From: an archaeon
GTDB taxonomy: Archaea; Thermoproteota; Nitrososphaeria; Nitrososphaerales; Gagatemarchaeaceae
Assembly (NCBI GenBank): GCA_021819105.1
Contig: JAKASK010000002.1
Coordinates: 86,992-118,991 of the forward strand
Length of the DNA: 32,000 nucleotides
Direction: 5' to 3'
Below the pieces are notes generated by a model. It was not told the DNA's origin, ran no database searches, and saw only the letters and a program-made list of their open reading frames with translations. Made by a program: the position numbers and the translations under genes. Below are positions 70 through 25,193 of this stretch, piece after piece; position 1 is the stretch's first letter; each line of letters starts with the position of its first letter.

Positions 70-1158
70 TCATACCCGGAAGGTAGGCGGCGCCGGGGTC
101 CGGCCGTACCCCCTGCCGACGACGTAGAGGCTGACGGCGAGTGCGGCCACGCTCACGATCGGGGGGACCACGGCGCCCCAGAGGTTGGAGTACACGGCCT
201 GCACCGTTGCCACCCCTCCGAACACCACAGAGACAAGGGTCGGCGCCAGGCAGGAAGGGCAGGTCGCGGTATACCCGAGGAAAGCGCCCACACCTGACAG
301 CGTCGCGCTAGCCGAGCAGGCGCCTCCCATCCTCTGGCTCCTCCTCACCAGGTTGTAGGTCGCGACGACCGCTGACGCGACCAGCACGGACATCGCCACC
401 GCGAGAGCAAGCTCGAACGGCTGGAAGATGAAATTGACGAACTGGTTCAGCTGCACGAGGACGTAGGGGGTGTAGATCGCCGTCTCCGCCACGCTCCCCG
501 GCGCCGGCCCGCTGGTGAACACGTATGCCCAGGGGTACAGGCCGAGGGGTGACTGGACGAAGTTGCCGGGCGCGGTGTTGTACCCGGTGATCACTATCTC
601 GTTGACGAGGATTTCGTAGGTCACAAAGTAGAGCGCCCCTGTCAGGTATGCCGTCAGCCTGAGCCTCCTTTCGGAGAGCGGGGCGCGTAGGAATGGGAAG
701 GCGGCGACGACGAGGTACGGTATGCCGATGACTGCGGCGACTCCAAGGGAGACGACGTACACCCCCCCTGCCAGGTCCGCAGGCGAAGACGGGTACGGGT
801 AGCTGGCGGCGAGCAGGAACTTCATCGACCCGAAGGCCACGACCGCCAGCGTCGCCGATGCGAGCGCGGCGACAGGGCCCTTTTTCGCTCCTCCCGGGGC
901 GGGGGGCGAAGCGCTCCCGGTCTCAGACACAGGGTCCGCGTTGCTGGGCCTGCCTCTGCGGAGGAGCAGGGTCAGGCCCACCGCGAGCGAAGCGGCAAGG
1001 TAAACTGCCACCGAAGAAAGTCCGGACGCCCCCCCTTGGCTCACTGCATAGTAGGAGATCAGCAGCGGCAGGCCGAACATCAGGGCGACCACGAAGAATG
1101 CGTAGGAGCGTAGGACCCCCGCCGGTTCTACCGAGAAGTCCAAGGCTCCACCCTGCAC
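70..1158 (-). CDS. Polytopic membrane protein with membrane-embedded CPSC motif (uncharacterised; paralog of 23064..23939)
   Basis: 362-aa ORF with a GTG start downstream of a TATA-like CTTAAATT (about 1186-1195, minus strand). Many hydrophobic helices. The C-terminal module GGACSASATL...GYTATCPSCLAPTL aligns by eye with TCCGSPG...GLFTGCPTCAGLFL of the 23064 ORF. Confidence 0.7.
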   Translation of the reverse strand: MQGGALDFSVEPAGVLRSYAFFVVALMFGLPLLISYYAVSQGGASGLSSVAVYLAASLAVGLTLLLRRGRPSNADPVSETGSASPPAPGGAKKGPVAALASATLAVVAFGSMKFLLAASYPYPSSPADLAGGVYVVSLGVAAVIGIPYLVVAAFPFLRAPLSERRLRLTAYLTGALYFVTYEILVNEIVITGYNTAPGNFVQSPLGLYPWAYVFTSGPAPGSVAETAIYTPYVLVQLNQFVNFIFQPFELALAVAMSVLVASAVVATYNLVRRSQRMGGACSASATLSGVGAFLGYTATCPSCLAPTLVSVVFGGVATVQAVYSNLWGAVVPPIVSVAALAVSLYVVGRGYGRTPAPPTFRV

Positions 1159-1214
1159 CTGTCGCCGCGGACCCGACGACCGAATTTAAGCCTCTTCACG
1201 AGACTCCGCGCCTG

Positions 1215-1394
1215 TCAGATCTGGACCACCCGGGAGAGGATGACGTAGACGACCGCGCCCGCCGCCGCGGTTATCCCAAGGCTCGTGACCAGGTAGTACT
1301 GGTGCGGAAGAACCCCGTAGGCCACGTACATCGCGCCTCCCGCGACCACAGAAAGACTGGCTATTATGCTGAAGAAGATGTTGAAGCTCTTCAA
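1215..1394 (-). CDS. Small two-TM membrane protein, 59 aa (absent from the ORF track)
   Basis: Hand translation from TTG at 1394 to TGA at 1215-1217 gives MKSFNIFFSIIASLSVVAGGAMYVAYGVLPHQYYLVTSLGITAAAGAVVYVILSRVVQI. Third-codon positions are about 80% G/C, like confirmed genes here. It has two hydrophobic helices and is one residue under the 60-aa track cutoff. Confidence 0.45.
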   Translation of the reverse strand: MKSFNIFFSIIASLSVVAGGAMYVAYGVLPHQYYLVTSLGITAAAGAVVYVILSRVVQI

Positions 1395-1433
1395 CTGCTT
1401 GGGCGGAGCCGGCTGGGCGATATAAGGAGTCAG

Positions 1434-1441
1434 CCTTAAAT
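1434..1441 (+). promoter_or_regulatory. TATA-like box (CCTTAAAT) for cupredoxin gene 1468
   Basis: A/T-rich octamer about 30 nt upstream of the TTG start at 1468. The same A/T element read on the minus strand lies upstream of the 1215..1394 ORF. Confidence 0.5.
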
Positions 1442-1442
1442 C

Positions 1443-1456
1443 CCTAACTGGTTCGG
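1443..1456. promoter_or_regulatory. Palindromic operator-like site CCTAAC-TG-GTTCGG
   Basis: 6-2-6 inverted repeat lying between the TATA-like box (1434-1441) and the TTG start (1468) of the first cupredoxin. One of seven copies of the family. Confidence 0.6.
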
Positions 1457-1467
1457 ATTCACCAAGC

Positions 1468-1908
1468 TTGAAGCGGAAGTACGTTTACCTCTCACTGGAG
1501 ATAATAGCCATCCTCGCGGTGACCTACCCGGTCATCTGGTCGGTCTACGCCGGGACCACCAGCGGCAACGCGCCGTTCTCCTGTCCCCCGCTGATCCCCT
1601 GCGACAACAACGCGCAGCCTGTCAGCACGACATGCACGACCTTCTGCATCATCAACATTCAGAACGCTGCCTTCTCTCCGGCCAACATCAACGTCACCCA
1701 GGGCGCCACCCTGGAGTGGGTCAACCTTGACTCGATAGCCCATACTTCGACGGCCGTCTACTCGGGCGCCTGGAACTCAGGGGTGATACCGCCAGGCGGG
1801 CACTTCCTCCTGACAGTCAACCTCGCGCCCGGGACGTACTACTACCAGTGCAACGTGCACCCGTTCATGACCGGCCAGATCAACGTGCTCCCCGCGGGCA
1901 GCACCTGA
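1468..1908 (+). CDS. Membrane-anchored type-1 (blue) copper protein, amicyanin/plastocyanin-like cupredoxin
   Basis: 146 aa with an N-terminal TM anchor. Cupredoxin pattern FSPANINVTQGATLEWVNLDSIAHT...GTYYYQCNVHPFMTGQINV. Ligand set is His...Cys-x2-His-x2-Met; CNVHPFM has the same spacing as the amicyanin loop CTPHPFM. Confidence 0.88.
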   Translation: MKRKYVYLSLEIIAILAVTYPVIWSVYAGTTSGNAPFSCPPLIPCDNNAQPVSTTCTTFCIINIQNAAFSPANINVTQGATLEWVNLDSIAHTSTAVYSGAWNSGVIPPGGHFLLTVNLAPGTYYYQCNVHPFMTGQINVLPAGST

Positions 1909-1981: not shown

Positions 1982-2599
1982 GTGGGCTCAGGAGTCAGAG
2001 CCATCCTTGTCTTCCTTGGCGGGATGCTGTTCACCGTCGCGTTAGGGGTAGCAACACAGTACAACATGCTGGTCCTGGCGCTCGGATCCATCGGGAGCAT
2101 GCTCTTCGCCCTCCGCGAGGGGTTCGTAGCCACAGGAGAAGAGGGAAGGGGGGCCACTAAGCTTCCGGTCAGGTGGATCTGGTTCGTAGGTTGCGTCGCC
2201 CTGGTCCTGCTGACGCTCACACCGATCCTTGGAGCCTACTCACCTACGATTGCCGCGACTGGGGGCGGTGGAGGCGGAGGTGGAGGTGCGGCACCCTCGG
2301 GGCTGACCCCGACATGCGGGAACCCGTGCATCATCATCATCAGGAACTCGGCCTTCGGTAGCGGCTCGCAGCTCCAGAACGGGAACGGATACGTCGTGGT
2401 GAAGGCGGGGACCACTGTGACCTGGGAGAACCGCGACAACACCCAGCACACCACTACCTCGACGGCCAGCCCGCCGCTCTGGGACAGCGGCATCCTGAAT
2501 CCAGGCCAGCAGTTCTCGCATACCTTCAACACCCCGGGGACATTCTCGTACATCTGCAACGTGCACCCGATGGCAGGAACTGTCGTAGTCGTATCCTAG
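1982..2599 (+). CDS. Membrane-anchored type-1 cupredoxin with 3 N-terminal TM helices and a poly-Gly linker
   Basis: 205 aa with a GTG start. Run of Gly codons at 2261-2287. Cupredoxin pattern VTWENRDNTQHTTTS...GTFSYICNVHPMAGTVVVVS (His...Cys-x2-His-x1-Met). Confidence 0.85.
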   Translation: MGSGVRAILVFLGGMLFTVALGVATQYNMLVLALGSIGSMLFALREGFVATGEEGRGATKLPVRWIWFVGCVALVLLTLTPILGAYSPTIAATGGGGGGGGGAAPSGLTPTCGNPCIIIIRNSAFGSGSQLQNGNGYVVVKAGTTVTWENRDNTQHTTTSTASPPLWDSGILNPGQQFSHTFNTPGTFSYICNVHPMAGTVVVVS

Positions 2600-2675
2600 A
2601 ACGCCTCTGTTCGGAAGCGCCTGCTTTGTGTCCTCTGCTGTGACTTGGCCATAGGGTGACTTTCTGCGCCCGTTC

Positions 2676-3143
2676 ATGCTCCAGGTCGGAGCGGCAGCCT
2701 TCCTCCTGTACGCTGCGCACAGGTTCTATCTGCAGTTTCTCCTGGTCGTCTGGGGGGCGGCCGTCATGGCTGGCATCGCCATCTATGAGAGGAGGGCAGT
2801 TGGGTGGACGCAAGTCCCGAAGGCGCTGGCCGAGGCAGGCAGGCTGGTCGAGCTGCGGCAGCGCCTGGCAGCCATCGAAGAGGAGCTTTCGGCGTCGAGC
2901 AAGGAAGAGGATGCGCGACACCTGCGCGCGTGGAAGGGGTCTGCCGAGCAAGGAATCCGAAAGACGGGGTGGTCGGTTGGGGAGTCAGGGCTCGAGGACA
3001 TCCAGAGCGCCTCGGGCCCCGATGGAATGGGCCCCCTGCCACCGCGGGGGGGACCCGGAAGCGGCGGAGCCAGCAGGAGCGCGAGTGGAGTCACCTGCTG
3101 GATTCGTTCGACGAGTAGGAGGTTCTGGCGTCCGAGCCGCTAG
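2676..3143 (+). CDS. Hypothetical 2-TM plus coiled-coil protein, probably frameshifted near 3046-3052
   Basis: ATG ORF with two N-terminal hydrophobic helices and a heptad-like segment (LVELRQRLAAIEEEL). High GC3 holds in this frame only to about 3050. After the G7 run the neighbouring frame has the coding-like GC3 and ends ...QQEREWSHLLDSFDE at TAG 3116-3118. Confidence 0.4.
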   Translation: MLQVGAAAFLLYAAHRFYLQFLLVVWGAAVMAGIAIYERRAVGWTQVPKALAEAGRLVELRQRLAAIEEELSASSKEEDARHLRAWKGSAEQGIRKTGWSVGESGLEDIQSASGPDGMGPLPPRGGPGSGGASRSASGVTCWIRSTSRRFWRPSR

Positions 3144-3169
3144 AGTCCGCCAGGGCCAGGCTCGAGCTG

Positions 3170-3436
3170 ATGGCGGCGAACGTCAGAGCGCACTGTCGGC
3201 TGCTGAGGGAACTCGAGCGCAGAAGCAGTAACCCGGGGGACTATGGAGACGCCTGGGCTCCCTTCGCTTCGACCGCCAAAAGGGCGACGTCGGACCACGA
3301 CGTCCGAGTCCATGCCTCCAGGAAGGCCAGGGCGAAGTTAGACGGCCCCTACGACTTGGCCACCTCCAGGGGCCCGGTTGCAGGGGAAGCGGCAGGGACG
3401 GAGAAGCTGGAAGATGACGCTGAACGCCGGAAGTAA
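3170..3436 (+). CDS. Hypothetical protein (88 aa)
   Basis: ATG ORF with high GC3 by hand count. It is in the same frame as the post-frameshift tail of the upstream gene. No recognisable motif. Confidence 0.35.
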   Translation: MAANVRAHCRLLRELERRSSNPGDYGDAWAPFASTAKRATSDHDVRVHASRKARAKLDGPYDLATSRGPVAGEAAGTEKLEDDAERRK

Positions 3437-3448
3437 GTTGCTGCGGAC

Positions 3449-4429
3449 TCAGCTCGTCGTGCCGCAGGCAGTCGCGTGGCTGGTGCAGTAGGGGTTAGGG
3501 AGGACCACCAGGTAGCCGAACATCCCATTGGAGACGTGGTAGTGGCAGAAGAACTCGTAGATGCCGGGCTGCGTTGCCTGGAAAGCCGCCACCCCGTACA
3601 CTTCGGAGTACCCTGCCGAGGTGTTGAGCAGGATCATGTGGACTAGGTTGTCCACCGGGACGTCTTGGATGGACGGAGGGCTGATGGTCGGAACGCCGTT
3701 CTGTGCGACGACGAAGTTGGTCGCGGGCGAGGTCACTGGCATGAGGGCAGTCCCGGACACGCAGTACACTCCTGAAACCCCTGCGGACTCCTGCGCAAAT
3801 GTCCCGCTGTTCGAGCACGACCCGGGAATGTTGGCGTTGGTCACGAAGTTGTGCATCCCTGCCATCGAGTCGTTGATCTGGAAGTTGTAGTACCCTGTGG
3901 CAAGGGTGAAGGTGTGGGCGTCGGTATCGTTGTGAATGAACATTATCTGCACTATGTCCCCTTGGTTCACCACTATCTGGTTAGGGCAGAACCGGTCCTG
4001 ACCAGTATTGTCAGTGTTGCACCAGTCAATCTTGTAGGCTACAGTCTTCGGCTGGACCCCCAGCGAGGCGAGCGCCGCGTTGAGGCTCGAACTCACGGCA
4101 GAAACCCCGGAGTTGGAATTCGCCGTGCTTTGAGCCTGGAAGGCGACCGAGAGAGAAGCGAGAGCGATCAAGATTGCTACCACTGCGACCGCGAGCGCCG
4201 CCCAAACTGTGCTCGAGGAGGTGGTCCCGCCGCCAGAGGCGACGGATGGGGCGCTCAGTGACCCTCTGTAGGCTGCGCCGAAGAAGAGCACTCCGGAGCC
4301 GATCGGGAGAAGTATCAGAGCCGATAGCATCGCGATGAACCCGGGCGTGACGTTCACGAACACACCATAGAACAGGAACATGCCCACCAGAGCAAGCAAG
4401 AGCCCGACCGAAGTTAGGGTTCTATTCAA
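3449..4429 (-). CDS. Membrane-anchored blue copper protein, sulfocyanin/rusticyanin-like cupredoxin
   Basis: 326 aa with a TTG start, 3 N-terminal TM helices and a Ser/Thr/Gly linker. C-terminal cupredoxin motifs: IMFIHNDTDAHTFTL...GIYEFFCHYHVSNGMFGYLVVL (His...Cys-x2-His-x4-Met). The GMFG.LVV tail resembles rusticyanin GMFGKIVV. Confidence 0.8.
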   Translation of the reverse strand: MNRTLTSVGLLLALVGMFLFYGVFVNVTPGFIAMLSALILLPIGSGVLFFGAAYRGSLSAPSVASGGGTTSSSTVWAALAVAVVAILIALASLSVAFQAQSTANSNSGVSAVSSSLNAALASLGVQPKTVAYKIDWCNTDNTGQDRFCPNQIVVNQGDIVQIMFIHNDTDAHTFTLATGYYNFQINDSMAGMHNFVTNANIPGSCSNSGTFAQESAGVSGVYCVSGTALMPVTSPATNFVVAQNGVPTISPPSIQDVPVDNLVHMILLNTSAGYSEVYGVAAFQATQPGIYEFFCHYHVSNGMFGYLVVLPNPYCTSHATACGTTS

Positions 4430-4444: not shown

Positions 4445-4458
4445 CCTAACAGGTTAGG
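4445..4458. promoter_or_regulatory. Perfect palindromic operator-like site CCTAAC-AG-GTTAGG
   Basis: Perfect 6-2-6 inverted repeat between the TATA-like CTTTAAAAG (4467-4475) and the TTG start (4429) of the sulfocyanin-like gene. Confidence 0.65.
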
Positions 4459-4611: not shown

Positions 4612-6120
4612 GTGAATGTCGAGCGACTGCGCAGTTCGCGCCTGCTCTGTGCTCTGCTGATTGCGTTCTATCTGACGTCTTCGTCCCTCGCTGCGTCGGC
4701 TTACGGGAGCGGAGGATCCCACTCCGGGAACGGGACGGCACCTGGGCAGGACGCGTCGCCTCCGATCTCGACGGTCGCCGTCAATCAGAGCTCGGCTTAT
4801 CCGCTTGGCGTCGCGGCCGACAGGTCTGGCAACGTCTGGTTCGCAGAAGACAACCTCGACGCCCTGGCAGTGTACTCCCCCTCCAATGCGACCATGAAGA
4901 CGTTCCCCATCCCCACCCCGCACCACCTCGCATGGATTTGGTTCATGATCTTCGACGGAAATGGGAGCCTCTGGTTCTCGGACGCGTCGCAGCAGCTACT
5001 GTGGAGGTTCGACCCGGCCACAGGGGCCTTCGCCAACTACACCGCAGGCACGGCTTACCCGATGGTGCTGCACTACGACCAGCAAAGGAACAGGATGTGG
5101 TTCACGTCTCTGACGACCAGCCAGGTTGGTTACTTCGACATCGCGGGAGAGAGCGCGGTCCTCGACAGGGTCGTGAACCTCAGCTCGTCTGTCACCGGGT
5201 CGGGGGTCGCAGGTATCACCGTCGACTCTGCGGGCAACGCGTACGTGGCGGAGGCGCTACAGGCGAAGATCGTGGAGCTGGACGGCAACACCCTATCCAT
5301 CATCAGGACCTGGGAACTCACGCCCGGTTCTCAGCCTGTCGGGCTTGCGCTCGACCCCGCCCGGGGGCGCCTATGGTTTACAGACCACGCGTCGAGCTTC
5401 TTCGGGTACGTTGAACTGGACTCGGCTGGCTTCGTGGAATACCCCACGTCGCTCTTGTTCACCGGGGGCGAGTACGCCTTCACGCTCCCATATTGGATTA
5501 CCGTCTCCTCCTCCGGAGACGTGTGGTTCAACGAGCACATAGCCAACCGGATCGGCAGATTCGACCCTGCAACCCTGCAGCTTACGGAGTTCAACATCCC
5601 GACCAACAGCTCGTCCCCCCTGATGATCTCGGTGGACGACCGGACCGGGCAAGTCTGGTTCACCGAGTTTGCAGGCAACGCTCTGGGAGAGGTCGACGAG
5701 AATTCCACGCTCGGAGTCTCCGTCAGCGACAGCATCGCCGCGGGGACAGCAGCCCCTACGATATCGTTCACGAGCACCCCGAACCCCGCACCGGCTGCTC
5801 CCCCGACGGTCAGCATCACAGGGGAAAGCACGGGGGAACCCGGGCCCGCCTTCGGGGCGACCGCCAGCGCCCAGGAGAGCGCCTTCCTGGTCAGCGTGAC
5901 GGCCAACCGTGCGGGACCAGGGAACTACACGGCCGCCGTCTGCTACCAATACGCCTACGTCAATCAGTGCGGGTACCTCATGCTGGTGGTGCCGCCGCCA
6001 GGGTCCTCTCTTCCACTACTCTACTCGGTCTATGCAGCGACCGGGGTGGGGGTCGTAGTGCTGGTCCTTGCTCTCTTGCGCGAGACGCGGAGCGCCCGGC
6101 GCCGGCCGCGCACTGCGTGA
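4612..6120 (+). CDS. Surface-exposed beta-propeller repeat protein (Vgb/streptogramin-lyase-like, NHL-type) with C-terminal TM anchor
   Basis: 502 aa with a signal-peptide-like N-terminus. Repeated blades: SGNVWFAEDN, GSLWFSDAS, NRMWFTSLT, GRLWFTDHA, GDVWFNEHIANRIGRFDP, GQVWFTEFAGNALGEVD. Several N-x-S/T sequons. C-terminal hydrophobic helix followed by RETRSARRRPR. Confidence 0.8.
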   Translation: MNVERLRSSRLLCALLIAFYLTSSSLAASAYGSGGSHSGNGTAPGQDASPPISTVAVNQSSAYPLGVAADRSGNVWFAEDNLDALAVYSPSNATMKTFPIPTPHHLAWIWFMIFDGNGSLWFSDASQQLLWRFDPATGAFANYTAGTAYPMVLHYDQQRNRMWFTSLTTSQVGYFDIAGESAVLDRVVNLSSSVTGSGVAGITVDSAGNAYVAEALQAKIVELDGNTLSIIRTWELTPGSQPVGLALDPARGRLWFTDHASSFFGYVELDSAGFVEYPTSLLFTGGEYAFTLPYWITVSSSGDVWFNEHIANRIGRFDPATLQLTEFNIPTNSSSPLMISVDDRTGQVWFTEFAGNALGEVDENSTLGVSVSDSIAAGTAAPTISFTSTPNPAPAAPPTVSITGESTGEPGPAFGATASAQESAFLVSVTANRAGPGNYTAAVCYQYAYVNQCGYLMLVVPPPGSSLPLLYSVYAATGVGVVVLVLALLRETRSARRRPRTA

Positions 6121-7742
6121 GACCTCCTGGCCAGTAGAAGGCCCAGACCAGCCGCGGCGACCGAAGCCGCAGCAACGGAGACGACGATCCAGACGGGAAA
6201 GGGAGCGCCTGGCGTCACGATCAACTTCAGGATCGCGGAGTAGATCACCCCTCCCTGGGCAGTCGCGCTGAGGGTCAGGTAGTATACCCCTGGGTTCAGC
6301 CCCCCGAGGGAGAGGGTCAGCCCTGACGTCGCCCGAGAACCAGGGGCGAGGGTGACAGCGGAGCTATTGAACGCGGCCGTCATGTTCCGGAGCTGGCCCG
6401 TGATGGTGACCCCGCTCACCGAAAGAGAGAGGGTCGTGGAGTTCCCCGCGGCTTGGTAGAAGGACAGGGGGACGGTGACCTTCCCCCGGGCCCCAACCGT
6501 GAGATAGGAGTCAGGGAGCGTGAGCGAAAGGCGGGTCGGGCTCTGAATGGGCACGACCTCCCCTATGGCGTCCCCGCCTATCTCCACGAACCAGAGCCTG
6601 CCGTTGCGGTCCAGGGTAACAGAGTAGACCCCGGCTATGGCCGTGTCGCAGCATGCAACTGGATACTCGGTCATGACGCCAGAGGATGGTATGAACGCGG
6701 CGATCCTGTTCCCGTAGTGCTCCCCGATCCAGACCGTGCCGTTACTGTCGACGGCGATCCCGTTGGGGAAGGTGACAGAGTATCCGAGGGCGCCGAAGGT
6801 CTGGGAGGTCCAGTACTTCACCAGCGACTGGGTGTTGGGGTCGTAGCTGTCAAAGGAACTGTCGACGTGCTCCGTCAGCCACAGCTTCCCGGAAGGGCTG
6901 AGCGCTATGCCGCTGGGGGTCCGGATGCTCGAGTTGATGACCTCTGTGGTGCCTACGAAAGACGTCGGGTGCGTGAACGCGAAGACGTATGTCTGGTTCA
7001 GCGGCGCGAACTCGGTTATCCCCTGGCTGGTCCCGTTCTGGAGCTGCGAGATGACCGCCCTGCCAAGCATGTCCGAGTCGGCAGCGGTGAACCACAGGTT
7101 TCCCTTCCCGTCGAGCGCCATCCCCGCAGGCGCAGACTGGAAGACGGGGAGGTCGAAGCTGCTGAAGGTATCCGTCGCGGGGTTGAACTCGTCAATCTGG
7201 TTGGAGAAGAGGCAGGCGACCCAGATGTCGCCAGACGGGTCGGCCAAGACGGCCCCGGGTCCGCACTGCACTGCCTGGGTCGAAGCGTCCAGGGCCACCG
7301 TCTCGCCAGGGATGGGGTACTCCGCAATCGAGGCTCGGCCGGCTGGGAGTTCACCCAGCTTGTTCGAGGTCAGCTCCACGAACCAGATGTTCCCATGGGT
7401 GTCTGAAGCCACCGCGTCGGGGTTCGAGTGGTTGGTGGGGATCGGGTACTGAGTGAAGTTCCCCGAAGCCGGGTCGTACTCCCCGAGCTGGTTGGTGCCC
7501 TGCTCCACGAACCAGACGTTGCCCTGGGGGTCGGTGGTGATGGACCATGGCTCGGAGTTGCCTGCAGGGATGCGGTGCTGTACCAGGGCGTAACCGTCGG
7601 CCCAGACGAAGCTGTCACCGCCCGACTGCGAGGTGAGTTGCGCCCTGGCGGGACCGGGAGAGGCGGTGGTCAGTGCTACGGCGAGGAGCAGGAAGATGGT
7701 GGCGACGCTGGTGCCCGTCCGTACCCATTTGGGAAGCGACAT
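6030..7742 (-). CDS. Surface-exposed beta-propeller repeat protein (Vgb/NHL-like) with Ig-like stalk and C-terminal TM anchor; paralog of 4612..6120
   Basis: 570 aa with an ATG start and a signal peptide. Blades: GNVWFVEQGTNQLGEYDP, GNIWFVELTSNKLGEL, GDIWVACLFSNQIDEFNP, GNLWFTAADSDMLG, GKLWLTEHVDSSFDSYDP, GTVWIGEHYGNRIAAF, GRLWFVEIGGDAIGEV. These are followed by a beta-rich domain, a TM helix and an Arg-rich tail. Confidence 0.8.
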   Translation of the reverse strand: MSLPKWVRTGTSVATIFLLLAVALTTASPGPARAQLTSQSGGDSFVWADGYALVQHRIPAGNSEPWSITTDPQGNVWFVEQGTNQLGEYDPASGNFTQYPIPTNHSNPDAVASDTHGNIWFVELTSNKLGELPAGRASIAEYPIPGETVALDASTQAVQCGPGAVLADPSGDIWVACLFSNQIDEFNPATDTFSSFDLPVFQSAPAGMALDGKGNLWFTAADSDMLGRAVISQLQNGTSQGITEFAPLNQTYVFAFTHPTSFVGTTEVINSSIRTPSGIALSPSGKLWLTEHVDSSFDSYDPNTQSLVKYWTSQTFGALGYSVTFPNGIAVDSNGTVWIGEHYGNRIAAFIPSSGVMTEYPVACCDTAIAGVYSVTLDRNGRLWFVEIGGDAIGEVVPIQSPTRLSLTLPDSYLTVGARGKVTVPLSFYQAAGNSTTLSLSVSGVTITGQLRNMTAAFNSSAVTLAPGSRATSGLTLSLGGLNPGVYYLTLSATAQGGVIYSAILKLIVTPGAPFPVWIVVSVAAASVAAAGLGLLLARRSHAVRGRRRALRVSRKRARTSTTTPTPVAA

Positions 7743-7799: not shown

Positions 7800-8288
7800 T
7801 CACTGACCGGGGGCTGGCTGTCCGCCGGCGGCGCCTTCTCGCTTGTTGTCGACGTACATCAGCGTCGCGGCCATCGTGACGATCCCGAATATCGCAGTCG
7901 CGAAGCAGAAATGGGTCGTCGCGATCAACGCGCTCAGCCCTGAGCCGACTACCTCCCCGCCTATCACCACCTGGATTGGGACCAGTATTATCGCGAGCAG
8001 CATGAGGCGGGAGGACAGCTGAGGCCTCGGCTTCATCCTCCATGCCGCGATGGCGGCGAAGAGTATCACCAGCCCGGTCACGACGCTGAGGAACCTGTGC
8101 AGATACTCGATCAGCGTCGGATAGTGGCTCAGCGCAGGGAACAGGGTGCCGTTGCACAGGGGCCAGCTGGCACCGAAGCCAGTGCCGCACCCGGCGCCGT
8201 AGCCTCCGAGGGTGACGTAAGCCCCCCAGGCGTTCAGGATGTAGATGGCGAGGGCTGCTGCGTAGACCCAGTACCTGGCCGAAGACAA
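7800..8288 (-). CDS. ctaA: Heme A synthase, compact 4-helix archaeal form (CtaA/Cox15 family)
   Basis: 162 aa with a TTG start and 4 TM helices. The Cys-pair loop GCGTGFGASWPLCNG and the conserved His residues in EYLHRF and TTHFCF are typical of CtaA. The size matches the compact variant described for Aeropyrum. Confidence 0.7.
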   Translation of the reverse strand: MSSARYWVYAAALAIYILNAWGAYVTLGGYGAGCGTGFGASWPLCNGTLFPALSHYPTLIEYLHRFLSVVTGLVILFAAIAAWRMKPRPQLSSRLMLLAIILVPIQVVIGGEVVGSGLSALIATTHFCFATAIFGIVTMAATLMYVDNKREGAAGGQPAPGQ

Positions 8289-12582: not shown

Positions 12583-12596
12583 CCTAACAGGTTCGG
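12583..12596. promoter_or_regulatory. Palindromic operator-like site CCTAAC-AG-GTTCGG
   Basis: Lies in the 54-bp spacer between the stop of 12605..13054 and the ATG of the SRPBCC gene (12550), upstream of TATAAATAG (12561-12569, minus strand). Confidence 0.5.
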
Positions 12597-15906: not shown

Positions 15907-15920
15907 CCTAACGTGTTAGG
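15907..15920. promoter_or_regulatory. Perfect palindromic operator-like site CCTAAC-GT-GTTAGG
   Basis: Perfect 6-2-6 inverted repeat between the TATA box (15925-15934) and the TTG start (15898) of the oxidase operon. Confidence 0.65.
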
Positions 15921-16885: not shown

Positions 16886-17464
16886 CTAGGACACCACCAG
16901 GGCTCCGTTCTGCATCGATGGGTGGATGGAGCAGAATATGCCGCAGTACACCCTGAACGTCCCCGCCTCCGTCGCGGTGAAGGTCACGTCGTAGGACTGG
17001 CCCGCCGGGATGGTGACGAGGTTTTGTTGCCCGTTCTGCTGGATGTCATCATAGTAGGTTATCTGGAACCCGTGAGGCTCGCTGGGTGCGCAGTTGATCA
17101 CATGTATCGACACCACCTGGCCCACCTTCACGTTCATGATTGGCCACTGGGTCGTGGTAGGGACGTAGAGGCTCCCGTTGAGGCCACCGTAGGGGCTTGG
17201 GTAGTCTCCCTCGACTATCAGAAAGTAGGCGTGGCCGCCTGAGCCTCCGCTCGCCACGTGCTCAACCTGGGTGCCGTTGGTCTGCGGCACCGAGCTGCAC
17301 GTCGCTTGCATGAAGCTCGGCTCGCCCGTAGGTGGGGGCGACGAGGAGGAGAGCACAAGGAAGGCGGCCCCGCCGATGGCCAGCAGGACCACTCCTCCGA
17401 GCAACAGATACTTGTTGCGATTCGAACTCCTGGGGCCGCCCGCCGAGCCAGCTACGGCGGTCAA
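16886..17464 (-). CDS. Membrane-anchored CuA-like cupredoxin (subunit-II-like, non-canonical loop)
   Basis: 192 aa with a TTG start 37 nt after the thioredoxin stop, and one TM. Motifs SEPHGFQITYYD ... TFRVYCGIFCSIHPSMQNGALVVS give His...Cys-x3-Cys-x2-His-x2-Met. Confidence 0.8.
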   Translation of the reverse strand: MTAVAGSAGGPRSSNRNKYLLLGGVVLLAIGGAAFLVLSSSSPPPTGEPSFMQATCSSVPQTNGTQVEHVASGGSGGHAYFLIVEGDYPSPYGGLNGSLYVPTTTQWPIMNVKVGQVVSIHVINCAPSEPHGFQITYYDDIQQNGQQNLVTIPAGQSYDVTFTATEAGTFRVYCGIFCSIHPSMQNGALVVS

Positions 17465-17501: not shown

Positions 17502-17837
17502 CTATGCCACCTTCACGAAGTTCTCGAGCTTGGATTTCAGCACTGCGGAGGGGACCGCGCCGACGATGATGTCTTCGACCTTCCCCTTCGCGAAGAACAT
17601 CACGGTGGGGATGCTCATGATCCCGAACTGCATGGCCAGCTCCTGGTTCGCGTCGGTGTCGACCTTCACGAACTTCACCTTGCCGGCGTACTCCTTTGAC
17701 AGCTGGTGAATCACTGGCTCCATCATCTTGCACGGCCCGCACCAGTCAGCATAGAAGTCGACCATGACGGGCTGCGGAGACTTCACCACCTCTTCCTGGA
17801 ACTTGCTTGCCTGCACCGCTACAACTGAGTCTGTCAT
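17502..17837 (-). CDS. trxA: Thioredoxin
   Basis: 111 aa with the WCGPCK active site and a typical thioredoxin fold sequence. TATA-like GATTTATGAA lies about 32 nt upstream. Confidence 0.95.
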   Translation of the reverse strand: MTDSVVAVQASKFQEEVVKSPQPVMVDFYADWCGPCKMMEPVIHQLSKEYAGKVKFVKVDTDANQELAMQFGIMSIPTVMFFAKGKVEDIIVGAVPSAVLKSKLENFVKVA

Positions 17838-17923: not shown

Positions 17924-18511
17924 TCAGACGACATCCAGGACCTTGAGCGTCCAGGACCCCGAAATGAGCACCCCGAGGGCGCCCATCCCCATCAGGAAAG
18001 AGTTCGAGTCCAGGTTCTGCGAAGACGAGTAGACCGTGTAGAACCCGGGCTGCCAGACGAGCATCATGGAGCCCATCATCCCGACCGAGAGGAACGTCAG
18101 CAGGAGCGCGCCTGCCCTGAACCCCCTGGGCATGGCAGTCACCGTGGTCCCGACCAGCACTCCGACGCCCAGGTAGGTGAGGTCGGCAACATACCTGAGC
18201 CCGACGTTGAGCACCGTCGCGTCGAAGGTGGGGGGGAAGTTCCAGAAAGCTAGCACAGCCCCGGGGATGATGAGCCCTCGGAGCAGGCTCCAACCCCAGC
18301 TCTTCTTCCTGTCCTTCCCTTCCGGATCTGTCCGCAGCCTTTCGAGGCCGTAGCCCAGCGAGATGGAATAGACGACGAGCAGGGCGCACTCGACCATCCT
18401 GGCCGTCAGATTGGCGTTCTCTAGCGCGTCGACCGGGGGGACCAAGATGGCCGCAATCAGCAGCACAGATGTCAGGACGAGGATGTTCGTCCGTCCCCGA
18501 TAGTCACCCAA
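17924..18511 (-). CDS. Polytopic membrane protein, possibly CtaG-type (caa3_CtaG-like) oxidase assembly factor
   Basis: 195 aa with a TTG start and about 5 TM helices. FWNFPPTFDATVLNVGLRYVADLTYLGVGVLVG resembles the W.P.lfd.a....l.h..fl..G core of the Bacillus-type CtaG family, but the usual His residues are missing. Met-rich segments (MMGSMM, MGMG). Confidence 0.35.
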   Translation of the reverse strand: MGDYRGRTNILVLTSVLLIAAILVPPVDALENANLTARMVECALLVVYSISLGYGLERLRTDPEGKDRKKSWGWSLLRGLIIPGAVLAFWNFPPTFDATVLNVGLRYVADLTYLGVGVLVGTTVTAMPRGFRAGALLLTFLSVGMMGSMMLVWQPGFYTVYSSSQNLDSNSFLMGMGALGVLISGSWTLKVLDVV

Positions 18512-20776: not shown

Positions 20777-22012
20777 TCAGTCTTGAAGGGGAGGTGGTCG
20801 GGCGACGACCCCCGCCCTGGACTTCGCCATCGCGTCTGAAAGCGGGGTGCTCTTCAGCTCGTCCGCTGAGGGGTTGTATGTGACCAGGGTCGCCCCTTCG
20901 ACGACGCGCCAGACCAGCTTCTCCAGCCCCAGGCGGGCCACGGCGTCCGAGACCTCCTCCGCCTTCACCCTGGTCCTCGGGTGCCTGGTGATGATGGCGC
21001 AGCAGTCCTTGTACTCCTCCAGCGACAGGTCGTAGGTGGAGATCCGCCTTGCCATCCCGATTATCTCCTCCTTGTCGAAAGTGAGGAGCGGCCTCAGGAT
21101 TGGAAGGCTGGACCCCCGGTCGAAGGCACCGATGTTCCAGAGGGTCTGGGACGCGGCCTGCGAAAGCGAGTCCCCGGTCACGATCGCAGAGGCGCCGAAC
21201 CACGGCGCAAGGGCCTCGCAGGTCATCCGCATGAACCTCCTGAACAAGGAAGGCTCGAGGCCGCCCTCCTCCCCCGAAGTGGCTAGCTGATACTCGGCGA
21301 AGGGGACAAGGACCATGGTGCTCTTCCCTCCATAGGAAGAGAGGGCCTTCACGAGCCGGGGGACCTTGCTTTCGAAGGTGGCGAGAGGGGAAGGCGCGAG
21401 GTAGAAGTGGACGTAGACCGGGACGCATCCGCGCTTCATCGTCAACCAGGCGGCCACGGGGGAGTCGATGCCCCCCGAGAACAGCACCATCACGCGCCCC
21501 GCGGTCCCGACCGGAAGGCCCCCAGGCCCTCCCTGTTTTCTGGAGTAGACGATGGCGTTGCTCCTGGTGACGTCGACATGGAAGACGACCTCGGGGTGGG
21601 AAAGGTCGACCCTCTTCCCTGTCTGCTCCACGACAGCGCCCCCCAGGTCCGCCGCGATCTCCTGCGACTTCATGGGGAACGACTTGTCCGACCGCCTCGC
21701 CTCGACTTTGAACGTACTTCCGGCGGCCTCCCTTGCCAGCTGTAGAACCGAGGAGCGGATCTTCGGGAGGTCCCTCTCGACGATGGAGGCGGGAGAGAAC
21801 CACGCGACCCCGAAGGTAGAGCTTATGCTCCTTTCGATCTTTTCATCCGGCCCGTCGGCCGAGACAAGCAGCCTTCCTTCGCTGAGCGTTACCTGAGGCT
21901 GCATCCCCGATAAGGCACGGTAGAGGTTCCTCCTCAGGGTGCGGACGAACTCGGGCCTGTTCTTCCCCTTGAGCGCGACTTCGGCATAGTGCACTACGTA
22001 GACCCGAGCCAT
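20777..22012 (-). CDS. thiI: tRNA 4-thiouridine synthase / sulfurtransferase ThiI
   Basis: 411 aa. N-terminal ferredoxin-like plus THUMP region (VHYAEVALKGKNRPEF) and the PP-loop SGGIDSPVAAW. Confidence 0.9.
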   Translation of the reverse strand: MARVYVVHYAEVALKGKNRPEFVRTLRRNLYRALSGMQPQVTLSEGRLLVSADGPDEKIERSISSTFGVAWFSPASIVERDLPKIRSSVLQLAREAAGSTFKVEARRSDKSFPMKSQEIAADLGGAVVEQTGKRVDLSHPEVVFHVDVTRSNAIVYSRKQGGPGGLPVGTAGRVMVLFSGGIDSPVAAWLTMKRGCVPVYVHFYLAPSPLATFESKVPRLVKALSSYGGKSTMVLVPFAEYQLATSGEEGGLEPSLFRRFMRMTCEALAPWFGASAIVTGDSLSQAASQTLWNIGAFDRGSSLPILRPLLTFDKEEIIGMARRISTYDLSLEEYKDCCAIITRHPRTRVKAEEVSDAVARLGLEKLVWRVVEGATLVTYNPSADELKSTPLSDAMAKSRAGVVARPPPLQD

Positions 22013-22949: not shown

Positions 22950-22963
22950 CCGAACGCCTTAGG
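22950..22963. promoter_or_regulatory. Palindromic operator-like site CCGAAC-GC-CTTAGG
   Basis: Lies in the divergent ctaB / CPTC-membrane-protein control region, 20 nt upstream of the ctaB TTG (22930) and downstream of the weak A/T element at 22971-22980. Confidence 0.45.
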
Positions 22964-23063: not shown

Positions 23064-23939
23064 GTGGAGCCTTCCCTCCCCCGTCCATCCCTCGCTCTGG
23101 GGGCGCTGGCCTTCGCCGGCGGGTGCGCTTGGGTGGTCGGAGACTCGCTGTACTGGTACTTCACCCAGCGCTATGTGTTCGGGCAGGGCGCAGCCGTCGC
23201 AGAGGTGACCGGGTTCTATGGGATCTTAGCGGCAGGCATCTGTCTGGCCGTGGTCGGAGCCTGGCTCCTCGGAAGGGGACTCGCCAGGCGCGGAGGAGGA
23301 CCGCCTCAGTCGGTGTGGACCGTTATTTCAGAGACCCTCGCATCAAGGACCGACGTAAGGATAGGGGTCGCTGGAGGGGCGCTCTACGGAGTCGCATACC
23401 TCTTCGTGTCCAGCATCGTCGTCTACCAGCCCACCGTCAACTTCCAGACGTTCTACGGCGCCACGGGGACGTCGGTGGCCGCGGCCACATGCTGCGGCTC
23501 CCCGGGGACGGTGCCAGAACTCATCGTATATCTCGCCCCCCAGTGGCACCTGGCGCTCCAGCTGCTCCCACTGGACGCCCTCTTCGCGGCTGTGATACCA
23601 ATACTCGTAGGCTTCAACGTCGCGGTGGCCGCCCATGCGCTACGGAATAGGTTGCTCAGGTCCAACGCAGGGTGGCTGGGGCCCGTCGGGATAACAGCCG
23701 GGCTCTTCACCGGGTGCCCGACCTGCGCCGGGCTCTTCCTTGCCGGCGCCCTTGGCGGCCTTGGCGCCACCACCCTCGCCGTCGCCCTTGCTCCCTACCA
23801 GCTGCTGTTCGTGGCGCTGAGCATCCCCGTCCTCATCGTCAGCCCTCTGGTGGTGGCGACCTACGCAGGGAAGGCGGCGCTCGCGGCGTGCCTGGTCCCA
23901 GCAAAGGCCCAGAGCCCCGTCGGGCCTGTAAATCCTTAA
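23064..23939 (+). CDS. Polytopic membrane protein with vicinal CC and membrane-embedded CPTC motif (uncharacterised; paralog of 70..1158)
   Basis: 291 aa with a GTG start and about 7 TM helices. Motifs AATCCGSPG and GLFTGCPTCAGLFLAGALGG are collinear with the C-terminal half of the 70..1158 protein. Confidence 0.7.
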   Translation: MEPSLPRPSLALGALAFAGGCAWVVGDSLYWYFTQRYVFGQGAAVAEVTGFYGILAAGICLAVVGAWLLGRGLARRGGGPPQSVWTVISETLASRTDVRIGVAGGALYGVAYLFVSSIVVYQPTVNFQTFYGATGTSVAAATCCGSPGTVPELIVYLAPQWHLALQLLPLDALFAAVIPILVGFNVAVAAHALRNRLLRSNAGWLGPVGITAGLFTGCPTCAGLFLAGALGGLGATTLAVALAPYQLLFVALSIPVLIVSPLVVATYAGKAALAACLVPAKAQSPVGPVNP

Positions 23940-23945
23940 GATATC
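23934..23945 (+). promoter_or_regulatory. TATA-like box for tRNA-Tyr
   Basis: CCTTAAGATATC, centred about 26 nt upstream of tRNA position 1 (23966). Confidence 0.5.
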
Positions 23946-23965
23946 TCGGCCGGTCGGGCGTCCGT

Positions 23966-24084
23966 CCCGCAGTAGCTCAGCCTGGTAGAGCTTCCGGCTG
24001 TAGAGGTCGGCTATTGGCTGACCCGTCCAGCCTACTCAGGCCACAGTCACCGGAGTGTCGTCGGCTCAAATCCGACCTGCGGGA
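23966..24084 (+). tRNA. tRNA-Tyr (anticodon GTA) with a 45-nt canonical intron; CCA not encoded
   Basis: Hand-folded cloverleaf. Acceptor CCCGCAG/CTGCGGG (C1-G72, the archaeal Tyr identity pair); D stem GCTC/GAGC; anticodon stem TCCGG/CCGGA; loop CT-GTA-G|intron|A; variable loop GTGTC; T arm GTCGG-CTCAAAT-CCGAC; discriminator A. Confidence 0.88.
24004..24048 (+). other. tRNA intron at canonical position 37/38 with bulge-helix-bulge motif
   Basis: CUGU (positions 32-35) pairs with intron ACAG. It is flanked by the 3-nt bulges AG|A and UC|A that carry the splice sites. The outer helix is GGUC/GGCC. Confidence 0.75.
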
Positions 24085-24191
24085 TTTACAAATAGACCAG
24101 GGGTGACCCTGTTCTTTGACTCCGGGCCGTTCCCTGCCTCTTTTCCATGGCCAGCCTGGAACCGCGCGTATATTTGCCCGGGGGCGACAAA

Positions 24192-25193
24192 TCAGACCTG
24201 GCAGGGCCCCGGATAGCTCACTCCCGTGGGGAAGACGTTCCCGGAGCTGTCGACCGTGAGCTGGATGGAAGGCAGGCTGGCGGATGCAGGGCCGCGCACG
24301 ACTCTGCCTGACGAGTCGAAGATCGAGCCGTGGCATGGGCAGAAGAACTCCTTCGCCGACGAGTCGTAGTAGCCGCTCATGTCGCAGCAGACGTGCGTGC
24401 AGTACATGCTCAGCGCGGTCAGGGTACCGTCGGAGTTCTTGATGAGCGCGTTAGGGTAGCCCGCGGGATACTCGAAGTAGACTGGGGTGCCCACCTTCAG
24501 GTCGTTGATGTTGGCCACAGACCCATGGACTGACCCGGTGGTCGTGGTCGGCCTGACAGAGCTAGTCGGCGCAGGGAGTTTCATCGAACCCACCAGCACC
24601 CCAACCCCCACCAGCCCTGCGAGTCCTGCCGCCGCCCTGATGAACCCCCTGCGGGTGTAGTCCAGCCTCTGGGACCTGCTCTTCCTGCGGGAGAGATATC
24701 GGGCGTGCGGCCTCCCCAGGACTCCGGCGGCCACGACCCCGGCCTGAAGGGCAAGCAGGAGGTCGAAGGCACCTAGGCCGAAGAGGTAGTGCGCGAAGTA
24801 GGGGATTGTCATGTTGTACTGCGGAGCGGTGAAGACGTCCCCCGCCTGGAGGACGAACCCGAGGACCCCAGCGGCGATGGAGGGGAGGTAGACCGACTTC
24901 GACGACGCCAGGCTGTAGACCCCGAGCACGAAGTCCATGACGGCGATGATTATCAGGCCGACCGCGTGGGAGACGGCGAGCAGCCAGAGGGACGCGTCGG
25001 TAGCCAGTAGGTAGACCCCTGCTGCGGAGGAAAGGAGGAGCATCGCGCCGGTCGCGAGCTGGATCCGCCGGAACCCCTTGACTGCGGCGTCCTTGGTCGA
25101 AGCCGCCTGGCCCTGAGAAGCAGCCCTGACGTCCGGGCATCCGAGGGCGTCCCGTCGAGCGCCCTGCTGGCTGCGGAGGTGGGCCCGCTGCAT
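24192..25193 (-). CDS. Rieske [2Fe-2S] protein fused to an N-terminal 4-TM domain
   Basis: 333 aa. The ATG lies about 27 nt downstream of the TATA-like CTTATTACAAATC. The C-terminal Rieske boxes are CTHVCC...CPCHGS. An internal twin-arginine signal-like segment YTRRGFIRAAAGLAGLVGVG is preceded by four hydrophobic helices. Confidence 0.85.
   Translation of the reverse strand: MQRAHLRSQQGARRDALGCPDVRAASQGQAASTKDAAVKGFRRIQLATGAMLLLSSAAGVYLLATDASLWLLAVSHAVGLIIIAVMDFVLGVYSLASSKSVYLPSIAAGVLGFVLQAGDVFTAPQYNMTIPYFAHYLFGLGAFDLLLALQAGVVAAGVLGRPHARYLSRRKSRSQRLDYTRRGFIRAAAGLAGLVGVGVLVGSMKLPAPTSSVRPTTTTGSVHGSVANINDLKVGTPVYFEYPAGYPNALIKNSDGTLTALSMYCTHVCCDMSGYYDSSAKEFFCPCHGSIFDSSGRVVRGPASASLPSIQLTVDSSGNVFPTGVSYPGPCQV

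Follow-up and report, generated by a model that had tools for sequence, protein, structure and literature searches.

A blue-copper respiratory island with a Fox-type oxidase core in an archaeon of the Gagatemarchaeaceae

The fox cluster has been described only in Sulfolobales growing on Fe(II) or pyrite, in which foxA-D are induced on Fe(II) (PMC5461723, PMC3312321). It has been proposed that FoxCD is a cytochrome b that takes up the electrons of Fe(II) and that FoxAB is the oxidase, with a multicopper protein, sulfocyanin or a rusticyanin-like protein as carrier (PMC5461723, PMC3312321, PMC7325606, PMC10654088). The published gene order in Metallosphaera is foxA-A'-I-B-C-D-E-F-J-G-H (PMC7325606), and two foxA copies are reported in M. 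sedula (PMC3312321). A 2023 survey placed the closest non-Sulfolobales homologs of FoxA in Gammaproteobacteria and Cyanobacteria and those of FoxBCD in Marsarchaeota, with no mention of Nitrososphaerota (PMC10654088). Genome studies of Nitrososphaeria other than the ammonia-oxidising archaea (AOA) report type A oxidases, cytochrome bd and one B-type case (PMC10833072, PMC10640624), and we found no report of fox genes in Thaumarchaeota in the literature searched, whose coverage is incomplete. Here we describe a respiratory gene island in a stretch of 32,000 nucleotides (the window) from an archaeon of the Gagatemarchaeaceae (class Nitrososphaeria; assembly GCA_021819105.1, contig JAKASK010000002.1, positions 86,992 to 118,991 of the forward strand). 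Our leading, still tentative, reading of the island is a Fox-type, cytochrome-c-free, Fe(II)-fed terminal oxidase system, the thaumarchaeal counterpart of the FoxA-FoxB-FoxC-FoxF core.

We chose genes by GC bias at third codon positions (GC3) and scanned their translations with Pfam and NCBIfam. The window has a GC content of ~62%, which fits the 54-62% reported for Gagatemarchaeaceae (PMC10640624), and carries a compact gene set from position 70 to ~26156. The right edge of the island lies at ~26156, where a gene for a helix-turn-helix (HTH) regulator is found, and the left edge lies just beyond position 1. Left of the window there are two small open reading frames (ORFs) followed by housekeeping genes (tRNA synthetases, AMMECR1, RadA), and right of the HTH regulator there is a housekeeping block of L13e, OGG, aminotransferase, SOD, transaldolase and transketolase; with housekeeping genes on either flank, the island is therefore bounded at ~26 kb. 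The original prediction had noted a blue-copper respiratory island here, with four cupredoxins, a heme-copper oxidase operon, a Rieske protein lacking an adjacent cytochrome b gene, an EB_dh-like protein, heme O and heme A synthases, several maturation candidates, a shared operator motif and no heme-c protein. It had called for profile scans of the ORFs, and these bear out the island and its components, except for the label "ZIP-like" given to one membrane protein. The heme-c motif CxxCH is absent from every stop-to-stop ORF of at least 50 aa in the six frames of the window, and no cytochrome b family matched in the window or in the 10 kb past its left end. For comparison we used related archaeal loci (L001-L011) and the locus carrying M. 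sedula FoxB (L012).

The oxidase operon comprises the following genes:

13528-15297, minus strand: heme-copper O2 reductase subunit I, FoxA homolog (589 aa; Pfam COX1, 206 bits)
15302-15898, minus strand: subunit II with a CuA site, identified by its CuA motif; FoxB homolog
13349-13528 and 13129-13347, minus strand: pair of small membrane subunits with two helices each, conserved immediately after subunit I in L001-L009
15985-16812, minus strand: polytopic membrane protein encoded just ahead of subunit II and kept only in L001 and L007

The last of these is the protein that had been called ZIP-like. The signature of the ZIP family is absent from it, and searches of Pfam, NCBIfam and PDB sequences returned no match, leaving the label unsupported.

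In subunit I, all six His ligands (of heme a, heme a3 and CuB) and the cross-link Tyr of HPLVY align to the A-type oxidases of the PDB, in the layout H in helix II, HPLVY, HH, and H..H in helix X. The Asp of the D-channel is replaced by Lys, the Glu of the D-channel by Leu, and the Lys of the K-channel by a hydrophobic residue. Since the ligands and the Tyr are kept while the channel residues are replaced, we take the protein to be an O2 reductase with B-like features rather than a member of the novel nitric oxide reductase families, which lack the cross-link Tyr (PMC11214002). A COX3 domain is absent, unlike in the fused subunit I+III of CoxAC, and identity to the A1-type CoxAC of L011 is 22%; judged from its sequence, subunit I is not the A1-type oxidase usual in Thaumarchaeota. 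Against the CtaD model TIGR02891 it scores 124 bits (cutoff, 671).

We performed phmmer with subunit I against 1.84 billion (1.84e9) representative proteins and obtained 805 matches at E <= 1e-3, two of them at E <= 1e-30. One of the two is a 134-aa fragment of the same clade, and the other is P0311, a full-length protein with 39% identity and 396 bits; the next match scores 114 bits. The cluster of P0311 includes proteins of M. sedula (ABP94661.1), M. hakonensis and M. yellowstonensis MK1, and by this search the only close relative of subunit I outside its own clade is Metallosphaera FoxA. This library, of representatives at 50% identity, holds only fragments of the window's oxidase clade (P0312, P0318, P0326, P0395) and is no measure of the size of that clade. 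Homologs of subunit I form ~67 clusters with 68-92% identity, the next step down being 27%. The named homologs are metagenome-assembled genomes (MAGs) of Thaumarchaeota/Nitrososphaerales, save one: P0034, a 72%-identical protein on a contig of 4.3 kb with the NCBI label "Rhabdochlamydiaceae bacterium", which is probably mis-binned, as the remaining named homologs are all from Thaumarchaeota. A haloarchaeal origin of the window, hinted at by its 62% GC and by HVO_ matches of the HTH protein, was rejected because its homologs come from MAGs of Thaumarchaeota/Nitrososphaerales.

In M. sedula, ABP94661.1 lies within CP000682.1 428908-450620, beside a second COX1 copy. The opposite strand of that region carries ORFs of 172, 203 (weak COX2), 80, 548, 322, 68, 202 (DUF1404), 50, 623 and 258 aa, a row that fits the published fox order, with the letter of each ORF (including FoxF) assigned by us on that fit. 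Subunit I of the window has 38-39% full-length identity to M. sedula FoxA/FoxA' (E 1e-130 to 1e-136; profile 449-472 bits), and subunit II has 34% identity to FoxB (BLASTP E 3e-36). The CuA loop of subunit II reads CSEYCG-VTAQG-LGHPWM, with an insertion of five residues between the second Cys and the His that is kept in all related loci. M. sedula FoxB (L012 7120-7731, minus strand) reads CAEYCG-TAATG-LGHSWL, with an equal insertion and the axial Met changed to Leu. We regard the insertion as a derived character that supports the fox relationship, as far as sequence can tell, and it may tune the CuA potential in Fox-type oxidases. The DUF1404 protein of the island (17924-18511) matches the M. 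sedula DUF1404 protein, FoxF (profile 48.6 bits, E 7e-16), with Pfam DUF1404 found on both, and the small subunit at 13129-13347 has a weak profile match (11.8 bits) to the 68-aa fox-cluster ORF, FoxE.

The counterpart of FoxC is encoded in the island together with two further anchored proteins:

9712-10926, minus strand: membrane-anchored extracytoplasmic EB_dh/DOMON-fold protein, FoxC homolog and putative heme b carrier (404 aa)
11254-11991, minus strand: C-terminally anchored extracytoplasmic protein (245 aa), between the subunit I gene and the FoxC-like gene in L001-L008
8852-9373, plus strand: N-terminally anchored extracytoplasmic protein (173 aa), whose homologs adjoin the FoxC-like gene in L001, L002, L004, L005, L007 and L008

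The profile of the FoxC-like family matches FoxC with 152 bits (E 1.5e-47), and in BLASTP the two proteins are 33% identical over 254 aa and align in an N-terminal segment as well. The window's protein alone does not reach the Pfam cutoff for EB_dh (PF09459), which is matched by 18 of 19 family members with a best E of 1e-20. Its AlphaFold2 (AF2) model (predicted local distance difference test, pLDDT, 63.5; predicted TM-score, pTM, 0.69) has strong Foldseek matches in the PDB only to EbdC (2ivf_C; E 1.3e-10, TM 0.73) and NxrC (7b04_C), and EbdC 2IVF is also reported as the closest structural match of FoxC (PMC10654088). Both the family matches and the model thus agree with the EB_dh-like assignment of the original prediction. 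The protein has one N-terminal transmembrane (TM) segment and seven N-glycosylation sequons. Its family has a near-invariant VSYKPKM motif and lacks an invariant His or Met, and loop pLDDT is low in the model. The family profile, searched against PDB sequences for a residue-level alignment to EbdC and its Met/Lys heme ligands, found nothing relevant. Likeness to EbdC and NxrC extends to the fold and, at the level of the family, to the Pfam family; unlike them, the FoxC-like protein does not belong to a molybdoenzyme, has insertions and about double the length, and is anchored in the membrane. The neighboring 245-aa protein has eight sequons and no conserved Cys or His, and is present in 8 of 8 related loci that extend past subunit I.

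The original prediction held that no described cluster has this gene combination. This is wrong for the core, in which FoxA, FoxB, FoxC and FoxF homologs are present, and stands only as regards the accessory genes (those for three type-1 cupredoxins, the beta-propellers and the SRPBCC proteins) and the operator, in a cluster without FoxD or a clear FoxG, FoxI or FoxJ. The fox clusters of Sulfolobus metallicus, Sulfurisphaera tokodaii and Metallosphaera spp. share with the island homologous heme-copper oxidase subunits I and II, FoxC and FoxF, as well as the CuA-loop insertion and the EbdC-like fold. Both systems lack a c-type cytochrome, include blue copper proteins (in Sulfolobales: Mco, sulfocyanin or a rusticyanin-like protein) and have a Rieske protein encoded nearby. 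The two differ in that the host of the window belongs to Nitrososphaeria, with relatives in acid soil, peat and mine drainage rather than in hot springs; identity is just 30-39%; the window has a single foxA copy; FoxD, FoxI and FoxJ have no counterpart; and the FoxH likeness is weak. Conversely, the window has three type-1 cupredoxins and one CuA-like cupredoxin, propellers, SRPBCC proteins, both heme synthases, thioredoxin, a polyferredoxin and the operator in addition; neither propeller nor SRPBCC genes occur in the fox locus of M. sedula. What is new, then, is a Fox-type core in another archaeal class and habitat, with another accessory set and its own regulon; the fox cluster itself was already known.

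The arrangement of the core is conserved. Subunit II is followed by subunit I, the two small membrane ORFs, the 245-aa protein and the FoxC-like protein in L001-L009, as far as the loci extend, and the FoxC-like gene adjoins the oxidase module in every related locus long enough to show it. Genes for the DUF1404 protein, cupredoxins, Vgb-lyase/NHL propellers and the SRPBCC protein also lie near the oxidase in related loci, and L007 (82% identity) keeps nearly the whole 25 kb, including the genes for heme O synthase, ThiI, thioredoxin, the polyferredoxin and heme A synthase. This synteny indicates that the co-location is conserved and not due to chance, and the comparison across related archaeal MAGs that had been suggested with the original prediction thus finds the core module co-conserved in several Thaumarchaeota MAGs. 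L001, at 93% identity, is Thaumarchaeota isolate REEA69, a name that probably points to the archaeal genome study of rare-earth mine drainage cited in PMC10833072. L002 is CADDZS010000068.1, from the type assembly of the GTDB family CADDZS01, which is common in acid mine drainage (PMC10833072). Iron oxidation in UBA183 and CADDZS01 has already been suggested, from "rus" (rusticyanin) matches only (PMC10833072). A metagenome scan with the CoxAC of L011 gave 48 loci, 0 of which were on contigs that carry the Fox-type module.

Four anchored cupredoxins are encoded in the island:

1468-1908, plus strand: anchored type-1 cupredoxin with an amicyanin-like loop, H...CNVHPFM (Pfam Cupredoxin_1 and Copper-bind, both above cutoff)
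1982-2599, plus strand: anchored type-1 cupredoxin, H...CNVHPM (Pfam Copper-bind and Cupredoxin_1; start at 2099 in the NCBI annotation)
3449-4429, minus strand: large anchored type-1 cupredoxin with a plastocyanin-like CxxHxxxxM loop, H...CHYHVSNGM (weak cupredoxin and rusticyanin matches)
16886-17464, minus strand: anchored cupredoxin with a CuA-like H...CxxxCxxHxxM set, H...CGIFCSIHPSM (weak NCBIfam matches to the NosZ CuA domain and nitrosocyanin)

The predicted His/Cys/His/Met ligand set of type-1 sites is present in the first three, which were assigned by Pfam and these ligand motifs. The fourth has no Pfam match and was assigned by its NCBIfam matches, its PDB matches (cupredoxin domains of NirK) and the CuA-like set. 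Homologs of 1468-1908 lie near the oxidase in L002, L004, L005 and L008, and a 42%-identical homolog of 16886-17464 adjoins the A1-type COX2 gene in L011. Between the cupredoxin genes, 2600-3448 (849 bp) lacks a convincing gene: an annotated 155-aa ORF at 2676-3143 (plus strand) is rich in Arg and Ser, failed the GC3 coding-bias filter and has no family match.

The Rieske gene lies at the right of the island:

24192-25193, minus strand: Rieske [2Fe-2S] protein with an N-terminal four-helix membrane domain and an internal twin-arginine (TAT)-like RRGF (Pfam Rieske, 48 bits)

Its cluster-binding boxes, CTHVCC...CPCHGS, include the disulfide Cys and are invariant across the family. The N-terminal membrane domain (residues ~40-205) is conserved over more than 440 homolog clusters and has no Pfam family; its invariants are H76, D66, Q116, D119, TAPQY and D144, within motifs such as LQxGDxxTAPQY and FAxYLFGLxAFDLL. 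The PDB matches of its AF2 model (pLDDT 65) are no better than E 0.09 and are all generic helix bundles. We considered a cytochrome b-like heme domain and rejected it, given a single invariant His and a model without structural match; the domain could be an uncharacterised partner domain with a quinone site or a bound heme. Cytochrome b genes are absent beside the Rieske gene in the window, L010 and L011. No Fox-type oxidase adjoins the Rieske gene in L010, and in L011 that gene is beside an A1 oxidase, with the same housekeeping flank as in the window. As it is also found away from the Fox-type oxidase, the Rieske protein is a general respiratory component of the lineage that borders the island, and its lack of an adjacent cytochrome b gene, as originally predicted, is normal in this lineage and not special to the island. 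The architecture recalls that of actinobacterial QcrA, in which several N-terminal TM helices and an internal twin-arginine motif precede the Rieske domain, and the NCBIfam model bc1_QcrA_actin matches with 53 bits. Unlike in QcrA, the four helices have their own invariants (H76, TAPQY) and an unrelated sequence, and no QcrB/QcrC partner is encoded nearby in the window.

Heme synthesis and maturation candidates of the island are as follows:

7800-8288, minus strand: compact heme A synthase, 162 aa (PF02628 COX15-CtaA, 59 bits, cutoff 29.9); conserved in L001 and L007
22064-22930, minus strand: heme O synthase CtaB (TIGR01473, 252 bits, cutoff 210)
17924-18511, minus strand: DUF1404/CtaG-like membrane protein, FoxF homolog and candidate copper-insertion factor (DUF1404, 46 bits; weak Caa3_CtaG)
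17502-17837, minus strand: thioredoxin (Pfam, 114 bits); conserved in L001 and L007
18672-20771, plus strand: polytopic membrane protein of 699 aa with ~14 helices and a C-terminal 2x[4Fe-4S] NapH/CcoG-like domain (Pfam Fer4_10 and Fer4_7; NapH/MauN, 29 bits)
70-1158, minus strand: polytopic membrane protein with a C-terminal CPSC motif and no family match; homologs in L004 and L005
23064-23939, plus strand: second polytopic membrane protein, with a CPTC motif and no family match

Both heme synthases are above the cutoffs of their models, and among the predicted maturation candidates the thioredoxin, the CtaG-like protein, the polyferredoxin and the two CPxC proteins were confirmed, leaving out the supposed ZIP-like permease. 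The L008 homolog of 17924-18511 matches both DUF1404 and Caa3_CtaG. The N-terminal part of the polyferredoxin is weakly FoxH-like, with 18 bits to the 258-aa M. sedula fox-cluster protein (pairwise BLASTP E 0.002). The two have the motif N-E-x-x-M-G...S-Y-W-F...E-M in common, and a weaker second copy of this motif is found near residue 374 of the polyferredoxin. This points to a FoxH-like module that was duplicated and joined to a NapH/CcoG-like ferredoxin domain. The protein at 70-1158 matches the 623-aa M. sedula fox-cluster protein, which has CPSC, with a BLASTP E of 0.002 in a database of 15 proteins; 23064-23939 shares with it the motif-level pattern ...R-x-N-x-G...CP[ST]C, which is not significant. 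We did not retain the CPxC membrane proteins as FoxG homologs, given nothing beyond this motif-level match.

Propeller and SRPBCC genes make up the remainder of the accessory set:

4612-6120, plus strand, and 6030-7742, minus strand: convergent genes for C-terminally anchored Vgb-lyase/NHL-type beta-propellers (Pfam Vgb_lyase, 104 and 146 bits)
8387-8842, plus strand: SRPBCC (Polyketide_cyc2) protein (Pfam, 44 bits); conserved in L007
12041-12550, minus strand: SRPBCC (Polyketide_cyc2) protein preceded by an operator (Pfam, 44 bits); homologs with 62-90% identity in L001, L002, L004, L007 and L008

Such propellers accompany the oxidase in L001, L002, L004, L005, L007 and L008, and no redox motif or cofactor motif was found in the two of the window. 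The two propeller genes overlap by 91 bp (6030-6120) at their 3' ends, and these ends encode Arg-rich cytoplasmic tails past the C-terminal anchors. The idea that the propellers and the CuA-like cupredoxin form a split lactonase-type NosZ was dropped, as only Vgb-lyase/NHL models match and the His-rich CuZ pattern is absent.

These genes are tied together by a palindrome, CCTAAC-N2-GTTAGG, with 8 matches at up to 2 mismatches in the window against 0.64 expected; none of 100 shuffles reached 8. The copies and the candidate regulator are located as follows:

15907-15920, 1443-1456, 1922-1935, 4445-4458, 9376, 12583-12596, 22950-22963: operator copies
25255-25566 and 25563-26156, minus strand: small membrane protein and HTH regulator (HTH_HVO_0163_N, MarR/ArsR winged helix)

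Short intergenic regions immediately upstream of start codons hold 7 of the 8 sites, and the genes behind them encode the three type-1 cupredoxins, the SRPBCC protein, a small ORF, subunit II and heme O synthase. The copy at 4445-4458 is exact, lies 16 nt upstream of the large cupredoxin gene and is kept in L001. The copy at 15907-15920 falls between the TTTTTTAA box and the start codon of subunit II, where archaeal repressors are expected to bind. It is kept in L001 and L007, and the copy upstream of the SRPBCC gene is kept in L001. At least six transcription units of the island thus share one palindromic operator, as predicted, and its statistics and conservation in relatives support a single regulon. 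A one-mismatch operator, ACTAACGGGTTAGG, is also found in L011 at 14220-14233, ~40 nt upstream of the A1-type COX2 gene, so the regulon seems tied to respiration at large, with the Fox-type oxidase as one part of it. A plausible operator-binding factor is the HTH protein encoded at 25563-26156; the HTH, small TM and Rieske genes occur together also in L010, and the oxidase cluster of L007 includes a similar HTH gene. The copper-limitation promoter motifs published for N. viennensis were considered and set aside, as their sequences differ from CCTAAC-N2-GTTAGG.

Two further features lie among these genes. An intron-containing tRNA gene of 119 nt (23966-24084, plus strand; Rfam tRNA, 48.9 bits) was overlooked by ARAGORN, which called 0 tRNAs in the window. 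It stands between the genes for the CPTC membrane protein and the Rieske protein, at the junction of the oxidase island and the Rieske/housekeeping block. Integration of a genomic island at this tRNA was rejected, as neither an integrase nor a compositional break is seen. The second feature is the gene for ThiI, which functions in tRNA 4-thiouridine formation and thiamine sulfur transfer:

20777-22012, minus strand: ThiI, between the polyferredoxin and heme O synthase genes

Its position is the same in L001 and L007, and it lacks an obvious respiratory link.

Two other described chains invite comparison. Copper-based carriers are the accepted picture for Thaumarchaeota, and the AOA chain (A1 CoxAC/CoxB, Rieske/cytochrome b and plastocyanin-like carriers) resembles the island in phylum, in the lack of cytochrome c and in anchored cupredoxins that presumably deliver electrons to a CuA oxidase. 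The island differs from it in a non-A1 oxidase without the D- and K-channel residues, an EB_dh-fold protein in the module and a 4-TM Rieske protein without a neighboring cytochrome b gene. The island may also be likened to the SoxNL-CbsAB cytochrome ba complex of Sulfolobales, a bc1 analogue in which a Rieske protein is paired with a glycosylated, extracytoplasmic protein that carries one heme b and takes the role of cytochrome c1; this complex is implicated in iron and sulfur lithotrophy (PMC5461723). In contrast to that complex, the window has no SoxN-type cytochrome b, and its FoxC-like gene is tied to the oxidase and not to the Rieske gene.

The homologies of the components, their membrane anchoring, their predicted location outside the membrane and their common operator can all be read from the sequence, and together they suggest how electrons might flow. 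An outside donor would reduce the FoxC-like putative heme b protein, which would pass electrons to the CuA site of subunit II, either directly or via the anchored type-1 cupredoxins. From CuA they would move to heme a and on to heme a3-CuB, the presumed site of O2 reduction, and a proton-motive force would be built at least through charge separation. Heme O and heme A synthases would supply the oxidase hemes, and the DUF1404/CtaG-like protein, thioredoxin, the CPxC proteins and the NapH/CcoG-like polyferredoxin would handle copper and thiols. The 4-TM Rieske protein could connect the quinone pool with the copper carriers. Fe(II) is the most likely donor on the analogy of the fox homology and the habitat of the relatives (acid mine drainage, peat and soil), and it is the least certain step of this scheme. 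The original prediction of an iron-oxidation-like copper chain therefore stands in one part, the cytochrome-c-free copper and heme b chain with its FoxA/B/C/F homology, and not in the other, as the sequence gives no evidence that Fe(II) is the donor.

Several points weigh against an Fe(II)-fed Fox system. Identity to FoxA is just 38-39%, so substrate specificity cannot be carried over from it, and even in Sulfolobales the Fe(II) role of Fox rests on expression and distribution rather than on a purified enzyme. With BLASTP and profiles, no window protein or family profile matches FoxD (the 322-aa M. sedula ORF), which is the polytopic membrane partner of FoxC, no counterparts of FoxI and FoxJ were found, and FoxG is represented only by the C-terminal CP[ST]C motif. 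Heme binding by the FoxC-like protein is only putative, as an invariant His or Met is lacking in its family. Gagatemarchaeaceae (UBA183) and their kin are predicted to be aerobic heterotrophs, and KEGG-detectable Complex IV is missing from 5 of their 19 genomes (PMC10640624). These last observations fit a quite possible alternative, in which the island encodes the main aerobic terminal oxidase of an organotroph: electrons would pass from the quinone pool to the Rieske protein (through an unidentified partner or its own 4-TM domain), then through a relay of cupredoxins and the FoxC-like protein, acting like cytochrome c1 or CbsA, to the oxidase, and the fox relationship would reflect common ancestry of the oxidase type and not iron oxidation. 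The divergent Fox-type oxidase could be the missed Complex IV, because it scores so far below the TIGR02891 cutoff. The island also sits next to the same Rieske gene and L13e-to-transketolase block where L011 has its A1 CoxAC/COX2 genes, with an operator copy ahead of COX2 and a homolog of the CuA-like cupredoxin beside the A1 oxidase; and the genes for heme O and heme A synthase, seen only inside the island, are embedded in it along with candidate copper-insertion genes. Set against a general oxidase are the absence of cytochrome b or a known quinol-oxidising partner near the Rieske gene in three genomes and the distribution of the Rieske family, which far exceeds the ~67 clusters of the oxidase and whose gene lies apart from the oxidase in L007 and L010. 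Moreover, the sole close relative of the oxidase is tied to growth on Fe(II), and an externally exposed FoxC-like protein is retained beside the oxidase in every sufficiently long locus.

It is improbable, though worth weighing, that the system oxidises a non-iron donor outside the cytoplasm (reduced humic or phenolic compounds, Mn(II), Cu(I) or reduced sulfur), with the propellers and SRPBCC proteins binding or processing the substrate. Such a role would account for the co-location of Vgb-lyase/SGL/NHL propellers and SRPBCC proteins with the oxidase across distant loci, their absence from the M. sedula fox locus, the operator ahead of the SRPBCC gene and the lack of FoxD. The propellers, however, have no cofactor or redox motif, a similar propeller near the A1 oxidase of L011 suggests that they may be common surface proteins, and the sequence points to no particular alternative substrate. 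That the oxidase homolog is an enzyme acting on something other than O2 seems very improbable: its strong divergence from mainstream oxidases (805 of 1.84e9 representatives at E <= 1e-3) and its B-like channel features would allow it, whereas the cross-link Tyr and the three CuB His are present, heme A synthase is encoded and denitrification genes are absent from the island.

We put forward, as a broader and rather unlikely proposal, that mesophilic non-AOA Thaumarchaeota (relatives of CADDZS01 and UBA183/Gagatemarchaeaceae), which abound in acidic soils, peat and mine drainage, oxidise Fe(II) or another extracellular donor through a Fox-type oxidase and blue copper proteins, with the 4-TM Rieske protein replacing a cytochrome b complex III as the quinone link. 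If true, this would extend the archaeal Fox pathway from the Sulfolobales of hot springs to a second class and to moderate temperatures, and soil and mine-drainage thaumarchaea would become candidate iron oxidisers with a concrete gene set for testing. The Fox-type module may also explain genomes scored as lacking Complex IV, since its oxidase falls far below standard model cutoffs. It would add a data point on how Thermoproteota, before the rise of ammonia oxidisers, exchanged or inherited heme-copper oxidases and copper carriers, and the operator, together with its candidate regulator, would offer a handle on the signal that controls the system.

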